From: Candidatus Cloacimonadales bacterium
Lineage (GTDB): Bacteria > Cloacimonadota > Cloacimonadia > Cloacimonadales > JAFGVF01
Assembly (NCBI GenBank): GCA_963667035.1
Contig: OY762964.1
Coordinates: forward strand, 259,245 to 323,244
Direction of reading: 5' to 3'
DNA: 64,000 nucleotides
Shown here: piece after piece, positions 11,515 through 64,000 of the stretch
How positions within the stretch are numbered: the stretch's first letter is position 1
Layout of the letters: the number at the start of each line of letters is the position of its first letter
Position numbers and translations under genes: made by a program
The notes under the pieces: generated by a model
Told to the model about the DNA's origin: nothing
Database searches by the model: none
Seen by the model: the letters and a program-made list of their open reading frames with translations, nothing else

Positions 11515-11537
11515 CGTTTTCCCTTTTTGAATATAAA

Positions 11538-11710
11538 CTCTACCCGCTGTACCGTGTTTGTTTGACTGTTGTGAACCTTTTACAAGGTGGGTAGCGTACA
11601 AATTAGCTTTATTATTCCGGATATAACCGGCCTTAATGCCACTAGAAGCTTGCTTCCCTATTTAACATTAGTTCAAAAGCAACACAAGGTCACGAATACC
11701 GCAGGCAGAT
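11538..11710 (-). ncRNA. candidate 6S RNA (ssrS-like) or other structured RNA in the zapA-rny gap
   Basis: About 173 nt starting right after the zapA stop. The 5' end UCUGCCUGCGGUAUUCGUG pairs with the 3' end CACGGUACAGCGGGUAGA (about 17 bp). This stem includes G-U pairs that exist only on the minus-strand transcript. Interior contains an asymmetric loop and an apical CCGG-UUAUAU-CCGG hairpin. zapA-ssrS adjacency is classical in E. coli. Confidence 0.45.
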
Positions 11711-16408: not shown

Positions 16409-17035
16409 CTATTCGTTTGTCTCTTCCTGAGTTTCATCAGTGTCTATGTCTTCGATTACAACACCTTTTTGTTCCAGAATTTTGTCGATTTCCTTCTTAG
16501 GACTAACTACCATTGACAATAAGTTTCTGTCACTTCTTGGTTTTGAATCCACATCTATAAAATCTTTTAGATCTTCGGTAATGCGTTCAAGAAGCTCGAA
16601 TCCTCTGTCCTTATGTGCCATCTGGCGACCACGGAATCTTACGGTAAACTTCACTTTATTGTGCTGTTTAAGGAACCTCATGGCATTCTTAGTTTTGAAA
16701 TTATAGTCATGCTCTTCAGTGTTGGGACCGAACTTAACCTCTTTCACCTGAACCACATGCTGTTTCTTTCTGGCATCGCGTGCCTTGCGCTCTTTTTCAT
16801 AGTAATACTTACTGAAATCAAGTATTCTGCATACAGGGGGTGTTGCCTTTGGAGAAATCTCCACTAAATCAAGTCCGGCTTCTTCAGCTTTTTTCAAAGC
16901 CATTTTTACACTTACAACTCCGACCTGTTTTCCGTCTGCATCGATCAATCTTACTTCTCGTGCTGTAATTTGATCATTAATGTTTTCTTTTGGGACGACT
17001 TCTTTAGTCTTAGCCTTCCCTTTGCGTATCCGAAT
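16409..17035 (-). CDS. infC: translation initiation factor IF-3, non-AUG start
   Basis: The track ORF starts at a TTG (16948), which would delete the conserved N-terminal INDQITAREVRLID segment. That segment is in frame upstream. AGGAGG at 17050-17045 is followed by in-frame ATT (17041), ATA (17038) and ATT (17035), with no ATG/GTG/TTG. The AUU at 17035 has 9-nt SD spacing; 17038 and 17041 are alternatives. Confidence 0.85.
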   Translation of the reverse strand: MRIRKGKAKTKEVVPKENINDQITAREVRLIDADGKQVGVVSVKMALKKAEEAGLDLVEISPKATPPVCRILDFSKYYYEKERKARDARKKQHVVQVKEVKFGPNTEEHDYNFKTKNAMRFLKQHNKVKFTVRFRGRQMAHKDRGFELLERITEDLKDFIDVDSKPRSDRNLLSMVVSPKKEIDKILEQKGVVIEDIDTDETQEETNE

Positions 17036-17080
17036 TATAATAAACCTCCTGTGTTTATCCTTGTTAATTCTTTCGCCAAT

Positions 17081-17106
17081 AAAAAAAGGCGGTATTACCG
17101 CCTGCT
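17081..17106 (-). terminator. intrinsic terminator about 30 nt upstream of the infC RBS (possible attenuator)
   Basis: Minus strand AGGCGGU-AAU-ACCGCCU followed by U7, preceded by another hairpin CUACCUUAC...GUAAGGUUAG (about 17113-17148). Confidence 0.6.
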
Positions 17107-17402
17107 TAAAATAGAGTTAACTTCTATTTATCACTAACCTTACACATACTATTGCAATGGTAAGGTAGAAGCAGACAGCTTCATTTCCTTAATGACATAT
17201 ACAAGATTTATGAATGCGTAACTACGTCAAGAAAAAAGAATTAATTAACGTTGTGGACTCAGTTGACTTAGTAGGAGGAGCTATAAAAGTAAAACTCGAG
17301 GTCAAATGGTTCAAACAGAGAATATTTTTAAGTAAAATCCTTTGATCTCATTTCTAAGATGGAAGATAACTGAGTCTCTGCTCTCTTTCTGCAAATGAAT
17401 AA

Positions 17403-17525
17403 CCAAAACGCAGTTTTCCCACTGGTTCTGCACTGTGAAGGCACTGCCCACGCACTGAAACACCGGGTTGGTACTGGAGTCACAGTGCGTGCACAGTGCA
17501 AAAACAGTGAGTTATTAGTTTGTGG
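17403..17525 (-). repeat. GC-rich island with 11-bp-phased GCACTG / CAGTGC hexamer array; also foldable as a rod-like hairpin
   Basis: CACTG at 17420, 17431, 17442 and 17453 (exact 11-nt spacing), and CAGTG at 17483, 17494 and 17505 (exact 11-nt spacing). Perfect 9-bp pairings TGCACTGTG/CACAGTGCA and CACGCACTG/CAGTGCGTG. A C-A mismatch on the plus strand becomes a G-U pair on the minus strand. Confidence 0.5.
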
Positions 17526-17591
17526 AGTGAAAGAGAAGGAAAATAGCGTAAGTTGTTGCAAATTGCACTGCTTATGGATACACATTCACTT

Positions 17592-17628
17592 AAAAGCAAA
17601 AAAGGCTGTTGAATATCTCAACAACCTT
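17592..17628 (-). terminator. rho-independent terminator of the Nif3-family gene
   Basis: Minus strand AAGGUUGUUGA-GAUAU-UCAACAGCCUU followed by UUUUUUGCUUUU. One pair is G-U on the minus strand but C-A on the plus strand. Confidence 0.65.
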
Positions 17629-17689
17629 TAAAAATCTTTGTCGTGATTAACGATAGATAATACAGAAACTAATCTTAATCAGTTACGAA

Positions 17690-18778
17690 CTATATACTCT
17701 CCAGAGTAGTATACTCATGCTCATCAAGAGTTAGGTATTCGAACTCTAGCTCATCACAGGACAGATAGTTCTCAAGTTTCTTAAGTACAGGATACTCAGT
17801 AAATAGATGTCCCGCATCGATCAAAGGGAGTTTACTGTCCAGAATAGTATGGTAAGTGAGGTCGGCAGTTACAAGAATATCAGCTTTACCAATAGCTTTT
17901 CCAATAACAGATGCTCCGCTTCCACCACATACGGCGACAGTAGTAACATTGGATTCTTTGCTCTTATTTCCATACCAAAGTCTTACAAACGGTGCGTTCA
18001 ATTGTTTTTTCACAAATGTTGCAAAACTTCTAAAATCAATTGGCTCAGCCAGTTTCCCAATTAATCCAAGGCTGTATGTGGGAATAGGATTCTCTACTTT
18101 AGTGATGGTATAAACCGGCTCCTCATAGGAGTGGTTAGCATGAATCACTCTCATCATTGTTGCTTTTAGAAATGATTCAGCCATGAATTCAAGTTTCACT
18201 TCTTTTACCGTAGAAAGTTCATCATTAGTTCCCAAGGTTGGATTACTTCCATGTAGAGGTTTGAAGTTACTCTCAACTTGCCAGGAGCTTGAACAACTGT
18301 CATAGAATCCTATTTTGCCTCCACCGGAATCAGCAACAGCCTTCTTAACTCTATCTAGATCTTCTTCCGGTAGATATACTTCAAATTTAAGCCAATCGGT
18401 TCCCGATTCATGTGATAATGCTTGCCAATCCGATAATCCGAGAGTTTCAGCTAGTGCAGTATTTACACCTCCGTCTACAATATCCAAATTAGTGTGCATT
18501 GAGATAACTGCTATTCTTTTTTGGATAAGTTCAATATAGACCGGATTTGTTATGCAATTTATTGCTCTGAAAATGAATGGATGGTGAGAGATAATCAAAT
18601 CCGCCTTTATCTCAATAGCTTTCTTTATAGCTTTATCCGTAACGTCAAGGGTGAGCAGTATTTTCTTTACTTCCCAATCGGGACTTCCAAGCATCAAACC
18701 TACATTATCCCAATGATAAGCAATTGCCGTAGGAGCAAGTGTGTTTAATCTATTCAATATATCTTTGATTGTTAGCAT
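17690..18778 (-). CDS. Nif3-like dinuclear metal center protein (YqfO/YbgI family)
   Basis: N-terminus ..WDNVGLMLGSPDWEVKKILLTLDVT...ADLIISHHPFIF, an inserted middle domain, and C-terminus VAVCGGSGAS...DAGH. Confidence 0.85.
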   Translation of the reverse strand: MLTIKDILNRLNTLAPTAIAYHWDNVGLMLGSPDWEVKKILLTLDVTDKAIKKAIEIKADLIISHHPFIFRAINCITNPVYIELIQKRIAVISMHTNLDIVDGGVNTALAETLGLSDWQALSHESGTDWLKFEVYLPEEDLDRVKKAVADSGGGKIGFYDSCSSSWQVESNFKPLHGSNPTLGTNDELSTVKEVKLEFMAESFLKATMMRVIHANHSYEEPVYTITKVENPIPTYSLGLIGKLAEPIDFRSFATFVKKQLNAPFVRLWYGNKSKESNVTTVAVCGGSGASVIGKAIGKADILVTADLTYHTILDSKLPLIDAGHLFTEYPVLKKLENYLSCDELEFEYLTLDEHEYTTLESI

Positions 18779-29434: not shown

Positions 29435-29568
29435 CTCCCTTACAACACACGGGACTTACTCGGGAATCACACGGGACTTTACCCGAGAAATTCCCGGGAT
29501 TTTCTCGAACAATTTCCGAAAGAATCCCGAGCGTTGTAAGAGACTGCAGAGAGAACATTCTCCGGTTT
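29435..29568. repeat. intergenic repeat/palindrome element (copy B) with about 22-nt periodic units
   Basis: CTCCCTTACAAC (29435-29446) is complementary to GTTGTAAGAG (29533-29542) and encloses four roughly 22-nt units. The first two are CACACGGGACTTACTCGGGA and CACACGGGACTTTACCCGAGA. TTCTCCGGTTT (29558-29568) is identical to 62320-62330. Confidence 0.5.
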
Positions 29569-62063: not shown

Positions 62064-62254
62064 ATATATTCCTCCAGCTTAATATCATTTTAGCATTACC
62101 AAATGCAATAACAAAAAAGAACTCTTTTTGTTCAAGTAATTTTTTCAGAATGTTGATTTTATATGGATGTGATAATTTATAATCTCTTAAGGAGTTTCTG
62201 TTAATGGGGGCGGGAGTAATCCGACAGATGTGTAAAAATTGGAGCTTTTTACTC

Positions 62255-62490
62255 TCTCTATTTTCATTCCTTTAGCAATCCCACCAACTACGTATTTTTT
62301 TCAAGATTTTCTCTCATTTTTCTCCGGTTTCTCTCCCGTTGCGAGCAACGGGAGACCAACGGGAGAGCAACGGGAGAGCAACGGGAGACTAACCCGAAAG
62401 AAACCCGTGGTTGGTGGACGCCTAAAAGGAGTCATTCAAGAAATGAAAATAAGATAAAATAGGAGATAAATAGGAAGGAAATGGGAGTCG
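62255..62490. repeat. intergenic nested-palindrome element (copy E2) containing an 11-nt tandem repeat
   Basis: CAACGGGAGA[C/G] occurs 4 times at 62346-62389, with two degenerate units to 62411. An inverted unit TCTCCCGTTG at 62332-62341 forms a 10-bp hairpin with the first unit. The outer stem CCACCAACTACG (62281-62292) pairs with CGTGGTTGGTGG (62406-62417). Outer arms TTTTCATTCCTTTAGC and GCCTAAAAGGAG...GAAATGAAAA. Confidence 0.6.
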
Positions 62491-62575
62491 AAAACCAGAG
62501 CAAATATGTGTCTTTACAACGTCCTAAATAAAGTAGACACATATATAACTGAGAGAAATTAAAGGTTTACAGAAA

Positions 62576-63365
62576 ATGAAACAGAAAACAGCATTATGCT
62601 ATAGTGAAGTATTTAAACGCAAAGTAGTTAAAGAAATTGAAGATGGAGTCCTAACTATCTCCCAAGCAAGAACTATTTACAACATAGGTGGCTCCTCAAC
62701 TTTGAAACGTTGGATTAATGAATACGGAATAAATGATTGCATGGGAAGGACGGTACACTTGGATGCAGCCGAAAAGCTACTACAAAGAGAAGAAAGCCTT
62801 AGAGCAAAAGATAGATTTTGAAGAGAAGGTAATCTCTAAAGTTATGGTTATACGTTCAGTAATTCCAGAGACCGGAGGTCGTAAATTACAGGAGCATCTT
62901 CCTGATCCTGAATATGGAGTTCCAATCACAGTTGGACGCGATAAGCTTTTTGATATACTCAGAGCTCAAGGTTTGTTGTTTAAACATAAGCCTCGTAAGG
63001 TATATACATCTGTCTCTGACCCGGATCATCAAGTATATCTAAATTTATTAGAGAATCTGACAGTAACTCGACCTAATCAGGTTTGGGTAACAGATATAAC
63101 CTATTTGCAGTTAGTAAATGGTAAGCATTGCTATCTATCAATAATGATTGATTACTACAGTCGTAAGATTGTGGGTTTTACAGTACAGAAAGACATGACG
63201 GCAGAAAGTACACTTGCAACCTTCAATAAAGCTTATAAGAGTATCAAGCCTGCACCCGGCTTGATACACCACTCTGATAAAGGTTCTCAATACACTTCAG
63301 GAGTCTATACTAATCGATTGCAAGAGTGTGGAGTAGATATAAGCATGACCGGTCCTAACAAATCA
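62576..63365 (+). mobile_element. IS3-family element remnant (orfA + truncated orfB); left boundary not determined
   Basis: HTH orfA (62576-62821) and an rve-type integrase core (..VWVTDITYL.., HHSDKGSQYTS). Homology stops after ISMTGPNK at about 63362, next to the pepA terminator. Confidence 0.75.
62733..63365 (+). pseudogene. IS3-family transposase orfB, 3'-truncated
   Basis: It lacks the conserved region that normally follows ..ISM(S/T).. (DNA..E..). The remaining ORF tail runs through the pepA terminator and is unrelated sequence. Confidence 0.7.
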
Positions 63366-63382
63366 AAGACCATAAAATTCGT

Positions 63383-63419
63383 AAAAGAAAAACCCCAAGT
63401 TTATTTCGAAACTTGGGGT
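63383..63419 (-). terminator. rho-independent terminator of pepA
   Basis: Stem CCCCAAGTTT / AAACTTGGGG, followed on the minus strand by TTTTTCTTTT. Confidence 0.65.
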
Positions 63420-63447
63420 AAACTGATTTATCGTTCTTATGCTTTAT

Positions 63448-64000
63448 TTATTCAGCTAAGTTCTCTATTAGAGCAGTAATTAGTCTAACTCCCCAGCCGG
63501 TAGCACCGGATGGAGTATACCCTTTATCTTTTGCACTTAAAGCAAGTCCCGCCATATCAACATGGAGCCAAGGCTTGCCCTGTACGAATTCTTCAATAAA
63601 CATTCCTGCAGTTATAGTCCCCGCTTCTCTGCCACCAACATTTTTAATGTCAGCAATGTTAGATTTGAGAAGATCTTTGTATTCTTCAAAGTTTGGGAGA
63701 GGCCATATTTTTTCACCTGTAATGTCTGAAGCAGCATCAAGAGCTTCCAGAAGACCTTCATCATTAGTTACAACAGCCGAAGCAACTGTTCCTAAGCAAA
63801 CCACTTGTGCTCCTGTAAGAGTAGCTATATCGAGAAGTCCGTAAACATTTTCTTTTTCAATTGCATAGTGAATAGCATCTACAAGAGTTAATCTTCCTTC
63901 AGCATCGGTATTAATAACTTCAATGGTTTTGCCGGCCATTGAACCGATTATATCTCCGGTACGATAGGCATCTCCTGAAATCATATTTTCACAAGTTGCA
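63448..64000 (-). CDS. pepA: leucyl aminopeptidase (M17), C-terminal part; N-terminus lies beyond the window
   Basis: [18 protein letters not shown]17 signature. The frame stays open to base 64000. Confidence 0.9.

Follow-up and report, generated by a model that had tools for sequence, protein, structure and literature searches.

A conserved, dispersed intergenic palindrome on an 11-nucleotide lattice in Cloacimonadota

The window analysed here, a stretch of 64,000 nucleotides (nt) from a Candidatus Cloacimonadales bacterium (contig OY762964.1, positions 259,245 to 323,244), carries between the genes nif3 and infC a GC-rich palindromic array, element A, in which short CACTG and CAGTG cores recur every 11 nt. 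Element A is one copy of a conserved, non-coding, dispersed Cloacimonadota repeat family, with three homologues (L221, L325 and L328) that show 73–79% pairwise identity over the lattice. We tentatively favour the reading that it is a dispersed, non-autonomous, mobile or formerly mobile palindromic DNA element, similar to miniature inverted-repeat transposable elements, or MITEs, or to REPINs (doublets of repetitive extragenic palindromic (REP) units), with the phased cores as putative sites of a mobilising protein. What we infer, beyond the observations themselves, is that a protein binds the cores, that this protein is a mobiliser of transposase or recombinase-like type, and that the element moves or once moved.

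An unbroken 11-nt lattice around a dyad

In the window, CACTG starts at 17420, 17431, 17442 and 17453, and CAGTG at 17483, 17494 and 17505; an initial annotation made from the letters of the DNA had given these positions and the exact 11-nt spacing within each set, and its coordinates are exact. Five phased CACTG-N6-CACTG pairs occur in the 64 kb, all inside element A, as against 0.06 (maximum 1) in shuffled sequence. GCACTG overall is at chance level in the window (17 copies versus 14.6 expected), with 6 of the 17 copies falling within element A. The GC content of 0.55 at 17400–17499 exceeds the 0.29–0.44 of the surroundings, as the annotation had also noticed. The window holds no other copy of element A, which is thus present once in the 64 kb.

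The element, ~175 nt in all, is built on one unbroken 11-nt lattice of five plus five rows round a 3-nt apex. The row order is the same in all four copies: first comes a degenerate CGCAG row, then four nnnCACTGnnn rows, the apex and, last, five CAGTGnnnnnn rows. In the window, CGCAG at 17409 is the degenerate fifth row ahead of the direct set, and rows 5 and 6 have decayed to CACCG (17461) and TACTG (17472), where L325 and L328 read CAGTG. The 25-nt spacer that had been placed between the two sets is therefore only apparent, since it holds these two degenerate, in-phase rows; their decay also accounts for a shift of two rows in the best pairing of the arms.

Because a conserved distal block follows the palindrome, element A is asymmetric. 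This block sits off the lattice and joins the near-palindrome TGCAAATTGCA (17557–17567) to an extra GCACTG (17565–17570); in L221 it reads CTCTGCATAAAACGCACTGTAGATT, and the extra core is (G/C)CACTG across the copies. The tract between palindrome and distal block is variable and mostly purine-rich. A polarity drawn from pyrimidine-rich left and purine-rich right flanks was considered and dropped, as these flanks form an outer extension of the palindrome and are alike on both strands. The palindrome itself spans ~110 nt. Palindromic, non-coding and, at ~175 nt, below the 300–400 nt that bound a MITE, element A with its inverted ends has the general build of such an element. The alignments place the ends of the element to within ~5–10 nt only. 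Its parts are as follows.

17400–17575, no strand assigned: whole element A, homologous to L221 1357–1560, L325 1741–1530 (minus strand) and L328 4088–4290; flanks beyond non-homologous
17382–17389, no strand assigned: outermost pyrimidine arm TCTCTTTC, pairing with GAAAGAGA at 17529–17536; window-specific, outside the homologous block
17403–17409, no strand assigned: outer helix arm CCAAAAC, pairing with GTTTGTGG
17409–17457, plus strand: 5′ arm, five 11-nt rows with cores at 17409 (CGCAG), 17420, 17431, 17442 and 17453 (CACTG)
17458–17460, no strand assigned: ancestral apex, AAA here and ATT or AAT in homologues, the dyad centre; the L325 hairpin tip is CACTG-ATT-CAGTG
17461–17509, plus strand: 3′ arm, five 11-nt rows with cores at 17461 (CACCG), 17472 (TACTG), 17483, 17494 and 17505 (CAGTG)
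17518–17525, no strand assigned: outer helix arm GTTTGTGG, partner of CCAAAAC
17529–17546, plus strand: purine-rich tract GAAAGAGAAGGAAAATAG between palindrome and distal block, with purine-rich counterparts in L221 and L325
17557–17570, plus strand: distal block, TGCAAATTGCA overlapping GCACTG, corresponding to CTC(T/C)GCAT...C(G/C)CACTGTAGATT in L221, L325 and L328

Homologous copies lie in three unrelated contexts

A metagenome scan with three successive GCACTG-N5 units yielded L221 as the one true homologue among the matches listed, the others being mostly unrelated tandem repeats in GC-rich or probably eukaryotic contigs. L221, a metagenome contig of 38% GC, is 78% identical over 110 nt to window positions 17404–17513 (BLAST), and its flanks are unrelated to those of the window. 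Its flanking glycosidase is Cloacimonadota-like, and a 90%-identical relative of that protein (P0121) led to L325, from the same metagenome-assembled genome as L002, in which an orthologous copy separates the glycosidase gene from that of a LacI/GntR-type regulator. A full HMMER search of representative proteins with a spurious 78-amino-acid (aa) open reading frame (ORF) of the window recovered a mis-called ORF (P0242) and with it L328, a fourth copy in a third context, between a hypothetical gene and the gene for a 697-aa protein. With the covariance model R1, L325 scored 79.8 bits and L328 scored 66.1 bits.

Homologous copies at non-homologous loci, as expected of a MITE, were thus found in three contexts (nif3 and infC in the window, lacI-like and glycosidase genes in L221 and L325, hypothetical and 697-aa-protein genes in L328) and in four genomes or metagenome populations. 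All copies are strictly intergenic; with respect to the gene downstream, those of the window and L325 share one orientation and that of L328 has the opposite one. A more distant relative of the lacI–glycosidase locus, L326, has a short intergenic region without the element, too diverged to define boundaries or a target duplication. A word-indexed protein search with the three translated copies gave no match, and no similar element was seen in 72,556 plasmid records and a phage collection. Among viral contigs, the conserved 19-mer had no matches, and an inverted partner array accompanied none of the 120 matches listed for three successive CACTG-N6 units.

A shared 175-nt block that includes spacers and the distal segment, at loci otherwise unrelated, argues for common descent of a dispersed element and not for a local operator or centromere. 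Since these blocks recur at three unrelated loci, in either orientation, strictly between genes and in one case beside a rearrangement scar, element A is better described as a dispersed repeat of the MITE/REPIN kind than as a locus-specific regulator.

Conservation is centred on the cores

The initial annotation had offered two readings, an array of protein-binding sites at the DNA level and a rod-like structured RNA, and had named an alignment of homologous loci as a means of telling them apart. The four-sequence alignment (A6: window, L221, L325 and L328) favours the former. Columns invariant in all four copies make up 40 of 50 core positions versus 25 of 51 spacer positions (p = 0.002). In the window–L325 pair, which is free of search-pattern bias, identity is 86% in cores versus 63% in spacers (p = 0.012), and in the orthologous pair L221–L325 it is 90% versus 71%, with only 38–60% of the neighbouring intergenic DNA alignable. 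At 79% identity this orthologous pair is no closer than pairs across contexts.

The claim that the spacers are not conserved held in part: they are kept less than the cores, but each row keeps part of its own, and row 8 reads CAGTGCAAA in 4/4 copies. As the rows retain their own spacers across copies, the array appears to be old and stable, and not homogenised. In row 7 of L328 (4165–4175) the 3′-arm core is CACTG in place of CAGTG, a single G-to-C change that flips the orientation of the core and breaks the pair; such a reversal would be odd for a conserved RNA helix.

Core-centred conservation, together with the exact 11-bp register and two equal sets opposed at a dyad, suggests that a specific sequence is recognised along one face of the helix, the simplest agent being a protein on DNA. 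A unit of exactly 11 bp is a natural protein register, as illustrated by the R1 parC centromere (PMC2241845) and by PhoP operators (PMC2275107). The DNA-level reading is thus the better of the two, in that the four aligned copies show phased sites, core-centred conservation and no compensation beyond shuffles.

The protein concerned could instead belong to the host. The array would then be a chromosomal one for a host DNA-binding protein, with two convergent sets of five 11-bp units of OmpR/PhoB-like type serving as an operator, insulator or architectural site, and the other cores seen in related arrays (below) would belong to paralogous regulators. The hexamer plus 5-nt spacer at exactly 11 bp, conserved around the core, does resemble a PHO-box unit, and PhoP operators consist of two to eight consecutive 11-nt units with the first six to seven positions conserved (PMC2275107). 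Paralogous regulators would also explain the same period with different cores, and the orthologous cores are apparently under purifying selection. We nevertheless consider this explanation unlikely. The operators of a regulon do not share 175 nt with spacers, purine tract and distal block, and the pairing of inverted arrays, which is specific to period-11 arrays here, was not found for PhoP operators in a search of PMC2275107 by term. Moreover, the convergent sets lie ~170–370 nt upstream of the infC −35 region, beyond a gene remnant, and the neighbours at the three loci have no evident functional link.

Stable folds without signs of a conserved RNA

Both strands of element A fold well beyond shuffled sequence (−74.5 kcal/mol, z = −4.5, and −74.6 kcal/mol, z = −3.9), and the stems listed in the initial annotation are present. 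When the dyad structure was imposed, ~68% of cells paired in the four copies, versus 25–48% with the partner slid. The best pairing register is shifted by two rows in the window, by one in L221 and by none in L325, with 65–75% of positions pairing per register, and the strand preferred by minimum free energy changes from copy to copy. Covariation showed no excess over shuffles with three or with four sequences (0.095 versus a shuffled mean of 0.104 with four, a test of low power). All four copies share eight mismatched positions, and where cores have changed, pairs are lost without compensation. Across three pairing registers, G·T and A·C pairs numbered 17:12, 5:8 and 6:7, and hence no strand bias was apparent. 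With no excess covariation, shared mismatches and balanced G·T and A·C counts, RNA helices do not appear to be what is conserved among these four sequences.

An Rfam scan of the whole window at gathering thresholds assigned no family to the element, its sole match being 6S RNA at 11537–11710. In a permissive scan of 16900–17750, the element drew just look-alikes of mir-33, mir-450 and mir-460 (26 bits versus a cutoff of 50); these were set aside as chance matches, mir-33 itself having GCAUUG twice, 11 nt apart. A coding role was likewise rejected. One frame is open in three copies, but it has no Pfam match and no third-position bias among substitutions, and the two overlapping ORFs across the array, which the annotation had taken for artefacts of the repeat, have neither a Pfam match nor a codon-position bias. 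No conserved promoter or terminator was found inside the homologous block. A sigma-70-like promoter match lies at 17310–17338 on the plus strand, such matches being no commoner than in shuffles across the scanned region. Readings as an attC site, a retron, a diversity-generating retroelement, a CRISPR locus or oriC were also discarded, as the sequence and its neighbouring genes show no R′/R″ attC motif, no nearby gene for a reverse transcriptase or integrase, no cas gene, no DnaA boxes and no skew switch.

The rod-like RNA reading of the initial annotation therefore keeps its stems and stable folds, but draws no support from covariation, G·U bias or Rfam. In its fuller form it would make the element a rod-like small RNA gene or a multi-copy RNA of 3′ untranslated or intergenic regions, with 11-nt rows that set helices and loops on one A-form face for a double-stranded-RNA-binding protein or RNase III. 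Consistent with this are the GC-rich island amid AT-rich DNA, the stability of both strands, the pairing at the dyad, and better conservation of the element than of the flanking intergenic DNA; conserved internal mismatches could be protein-binding loops, and the sigma-70-like match, at its shuffle-level frequency, could be counted on this side too. We regard this RNA as improbable all the same, given the uncompensated core changes, a fold preference that flips between copies and favours no strand, a pairing register that varies by copy, and a block with neither an Rfam family nor a conserved promoter or terminator of its own.

Further palindromes on the 11-nt lattice

The window holds two more 11-nt-lattice hairpins with other cores, elements B and C, and ~10 more lie in related loci.

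62236–62500: element B, a long imperfect palindrome in which CAACGGGAGAC, repeated 4.4 times at 62346–62393, stands opposite TTTCTCTCCCG, repeated 2.2 times at 62317–62340
62576–62821 and 62733–63479: IS3-family element beside B, comprising orfA with HTH_28 and orfB with rve, respectively
29437–29548: element C, palindromic, its CGGGA and TCCCG cores recurring every 11 nt
Members in related loci: L015 and L056 with GCAYTGC cores; L007, L008 and L057 with AAGGGTG cores; L034 and L045 with TAAGGTTATAC units; and L006

Element B lies between the start of a SurA/PpiD-like gene and the IS3-family element, ~160 nt away; one of its arms has four nearly perfect units, and no second copy was found among the loci examined. 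Element C follows a bile-acid/sodium symporter-family (SBF) gene at a distance of 39 nt and precedes an endonuclease gene by 196 nt, and a 77% copy sits between unrelated genes in L001 (1306–1393). Of the window's nine large intergenic gaps, three have an 11-nt-lattice element; five other large gaps were folded and none was found there. Across all Cloacimonadota loci, model R1 gave weak, non-significant matches to L015 (E = 0.26) and B (E = 2.6).

Counts of three phased 5-mers in 0.54 Mb of Cloacimonadota DNA peaked at periods 7, 9 and 11. When two direct plus two inverted copies within 160 nt were required, seven cases had period 11, as against 0–2 at other periods and ~0 in shuffles. Period 11 accounted for 54% of clusters in the Cloacimonadota set versus ~11%, without a peak, in 1.7 Mb of unrelated viral and metagenomic contigs.

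Other repeats were observed alongside this class. Cloacimonadota intergenic DNA is rich in direct heptamer arrays, (ACAGGTG)n, (CAGGCGT)n and (AAAGTTA)n, and in nonamer arrays, (GTTTAGAAG)n and (CACAGATTT)n, located at L029 3752–3853, L009 2588–2628, L024 1251–1284, L076 2485–2544 and L075 2074–2145; unlike the 11-nt arrays, these mostly lack an inverted partner. MITE-like elements of 250–300 nt occur at L084 2405–2720 and L046 ~2380–2645 and in L032, L035 and L029. Their inverted ends read TTTAACCAC(G/A)(G/A)A, after which come CAC(G/A)(G/A)A motifs with a phase of 9–10 nt, and the L084 element has a perfect 28-bp inverted repeat, AACCACGGAAGGCACTGAAAGCACGGAA. These elements may be related to the 11-nt class, to judge from the ends of B (CCACCAACCACG) and L007 (TTAACCACCC). 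As a terminus common to all families, TTAACCAC was rejected, being not enriched overall and real just for a subset of the MITE-like elements with 9–10-nt units. Metagenome contigs of other organisms (49–62% or 32% GC), possibly eukaryotic, also carry long, near-perfect inverted 11-nt arrays with a GCACTG core: L245 430–760, with 7 + 7 units round a 110-nt centre; L313 225–296 plus a minus-strand array at ~52–112 (1298–1358 from the other end); L305 4850–5100; and L298 1–70. No recognisable product is encoded on these contigs.

It is possible, though we hold the proposal with considerable doubt, that palindromes on an 11-nt lattice form a previously undescribed class of bacterial cis-elements, abundant in long Cloacimonadota intergenic regions, in which selection acts on phased pentamer or hexamer cores and not on helices. 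Each would be a two-fold symmetric scaffold on which ~10 protomers of a sequence-specific protein line up along one DNA face (or one face of an A-form RNA rod), with the cores of each family (CACTG, CGGGA, AAGGGTG and others) read by paralogous proteins. Such a chromosomal nucleoprotein system might be of mobile origin or host-recruited as an insulator or organiser between transcription units.

The abundance of repeats also raises the explanation that element A is a neutral palindromic minisatellite, produced by slippage of an 11-nt unit plus fold-back duplication and tolerated in long intergenic gaps. Cloacimonadota intergenic DNA is indeed rich in 7-, 9- and 11-nt arrays, the rows that are intact differ by copy while the pairing register moves by whole rows, and the four near-perfect units on one arm of B suggest recent expansion. 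We consider neutral slippage quite unlikely, however: row identities are kept in four copies at three loci, as in an old and stable array, cores are conserved well above spacers, homologues at unrelated loci need dispersal and not local slippage, and slippage does not explain the sharp period-11 preference of direct-plus-inverted arrays.

Genomic setting between nif3 and infC

Element A lies in a Cloacimonadota chromosome of ~3.1 Mb, with nif3 alongside ribosomal-protein genes. The genes round it are all on the minus strand, namely nif3 (17690–18778, PF01784), whose product has no exact match on record and is 65–66% identical to its nearest relatives, infC (16409–16948), rpmI, rplT, pheS and pheT, and a HAD hydrolase gene and a pyridoxal-kinase-like gene are further neighbours within ~10 kb. 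The initial annotation had named the nif3 terminator and the infC leader as the flanks of the array, and both are in place.

17601–17629, minus strand: intrinsic terminator of nif3, a 13-bp stem plus T run, not part of the element
17075–17240, minus strand: conserved infC promoter-like block, with TTGACG at 17230–17225, and L20-leader-like attenuator at 17192–17075
17214–17345, plus strand: decayed remnant of a divergent four-helix-bundle gene (PF05635), intact in L001 at 2048–2683; synteny breakpoint beside the element

The remnant is an internally deleted ORF of 43 codons, and PF05635 is the 23S rRNA-intervening-sequence protein family. We compared the best 80 infC loci from GTDB species representatives, nearly all labelled Cloacimonadota, with L001 and L002 the closest; neither the element nor a phased CACTG pair was found in any of these 80, and the element was not present in the nearest nif3 loci (L081–L084). 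Homology upstream of infC stops at ~17289 in L001 and at ~17236 in L002, and beyond that point the neighbours differ by relative, with the divergent four-helix-bundle gene in L001 and crcB in L084. Downstream of nif3, an ATP synthase or methyltransferase gene is found in L081 and L082. Because homology ends at these points and each relative has a different neighbour, element A lies outside the infC leader, at a synteny breakpoint. On the evidence of gene order, the region upstream of the infC promoter is a rearrangement hot spot. Element A has no part in infC/L20 leader control.

Matches to the L20_leader family occur in the same place upstream of infC in six Cloacimonadota, at 34–44 bits against a gathering score of 58.7. 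The window match scores 34 bits, and the five others lie at L057 2741–2858, L004 2663–2816, L003 2759–2883, L084 2795–2914 and L002 2754–2872. Each window-type match closes with a terminator hairpin plus T run, and the infC-upstream element is probably an L20-responsive attenuator outside Firmicutes.

Two features elsewhere in the window were also observed. The 6S RNA (RF00013, 76.9 bits, full length) lies on the minus strand directly upstream of the RNase Y gene, overlapping the start of its longest ORF. Near the window end, an M17 leucyl aminopeptidase gene (63448–63984, minus strand) has only its C-terminal catalytic half open (178 aa, profile positions 140–309), and ~30 nt of this ORF are shared with the 3′ end of the IS3-family orfB. 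Perhaps the gene has been interrupted, or a frame change close to the window end may separate this half from the start.

Comparison with known repeats and protein-binding arrays

REPs reach copy numbers of tens to hundreds and are accompanied by a RAYT gene, and REPINs are REP doublets mobilised by RAYT transposases. Element A resembles both in being a short, non-coding, intergenic imperfect palindrome that forms a long hairpin, is dispersed in either orientation and is kept across related species. A REP unit has 20–40 nt with a GTAG or CGTC tag (PMC3733652). By contrast, GTAG, CTAC, CGTC and GACG are all absent from 17395–17575, the palindrome spans ~110 nt, and the arms carry an 11-nt lattice of repeated cores that REPs lack. 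No RAYT gene was seen among those ORFs of the window that were examined.

MITEs such as the Correia elements of Neisseria and BrickBuilt are likewise non-coding, 100–300 nt long, with inverted ends, and always intergenic near promoters or terminators. In Correia elements, complementarity is confined to terminal inverted repeats and there is a TA duplication, whereas the whole body of element A consists of two inverted 11-nt arrays. BrickBuilt is found in Porphyromonas gingivalis, which belongs to a phylum related to Cloacimonadota. It has internal short tandem units with a leader and a tail and is present 19 times per genome (PMC4596501). Its description sets it apart, as its units are of 23 nt and all direct, and those of element A are of 11 nt in inverted arrays.

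Transposon ends with several transposase-binding sites are a further comparison. Those of Tn7, Mu and IS21-type elements, and the subterminal repeats of plant En/Spm, have several short sites per end with the ends inverted, and non-autonomous derivatives reduce to abutting ends. The sites of Tn7 and Mu are ~20–22 bp, and other transposon-end sites are irregularly spaced. Element A differs in that no cognate transposase or TG...CA termini were identified for it.

Cyanobacterial short tandemly repeated repetitive (STRR) sequences and the TAACTGA repeats of Beggiatoaceae are also abundant and lineage-specific, with a short conserved unit repeated in tandem between genes; for TAACTGA, 169 direct sets and one indirect are recorded (PMC4679880). 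Their units are of 7 nt, almost all direct, and form no hairpin. It is the heptamer and nonamer arrays of Cloacimonadota that recall these repeats.

Among protein-binding arrays, PHO boxes, to which the OmpR-family response regulators PhoP and PhoB bind head-to-tail, come near in their consecutive 11-nt units, of which 6–7 nt form a conserved core and the rest varies; occupancy of the weaker units is cooperative, and a unit of 10 nt is bound poorly (PMC2275107). They are, however, direct repeats at the promoters of a regulon, without a palindromic 5 + 5 arrangement or 175-nt blocks copied between loci. R1 parC has two sets of five 11-bp iterons, each iteron taking up one ParR dimer on B-form DNA (PMC2241845). 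That element A is itself a plasmid-type iteron array or centromere of this kind, bound by a ParR-like or Rep-like protein, is very improbable despite the agreement in count and length of two blocks of five 11-bp units (PMC2241845), as its blocks are inverted and abut at a 3-nt apex where the ten parC units are direct and flank a 39-bp par promoter beside parMR on a plasmid, no par, rep or actin-like gene lies within ~10 kb, and it recurs at unrelated loci of chromosomes, here one of ~3.1 Mb, with no match among the plasmid records searched; the likening to iterons and R1 parC, which had accompanied the DNA-level reading from the start, is hence given up.

A dispersed element with putative protein-binding arms

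The favoured reading, of a palindromic element that is or was mobile, takes element A to act most likely at the level of DNA. A protein would assemble on one helix face along both arms, as at multi-site transposon ends, and the element would have inserted, or been carried, into the gap, prone to rearrangement, that separates the infC promoter from the nif3 terminator.

Several observations weigh against such mobility. No target-site duplication could be defined, and the loci examined yielded neither a parent element of full length nor a transposase with ends to match; contigs with distant inverted GCACTG arrays (L298, L313), in which a parent transposon was sought, encode nothing recognisable. 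The 64-kb window has one copy of A and each relative examined has one locus, and the copies, at 73–79% identity, are old, with nothing that points to a recent burst. The cores of L221 and L325, 90% identical amid poorly alignable DNA, fit a host-level function at least as well as selfish persistence. If the cores were transposase sites, several core families per genome would need several cognate proteins. Finally, 11 nt is the helical repeat of A-form RNA, and together with a very stable rod on both strands (z of about −4) this leaves room for an RNA role, the more so as the covariation test rests on four sequences and has low power.

The results take element A out of the infC/L20 regulatory region and off the list of riboswitch-like RNA candidates, and the covariance model, with a simple period test, can now serve to catalogue the class. 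If the proposed reading is true, Cloacimonadota, uncultured syntrophs that dominate many anaerobic digesters, have their own kind of dispersed intergenic palindrome. Its design, in which conserved cores sit on a strict 11-base lattice and switch orientation at the dyad, would differ from that of REPs, Correia elements and other described MITEs, and would point to a protein polymerising along both arms in a one-turn register. Elements on the 11-nt lattice would mark rearrangement breakpoints, as here beside a decayed gene, and cause spurious annotated ORFs, and they may insulate or terminate transcription between housekeeping operons.

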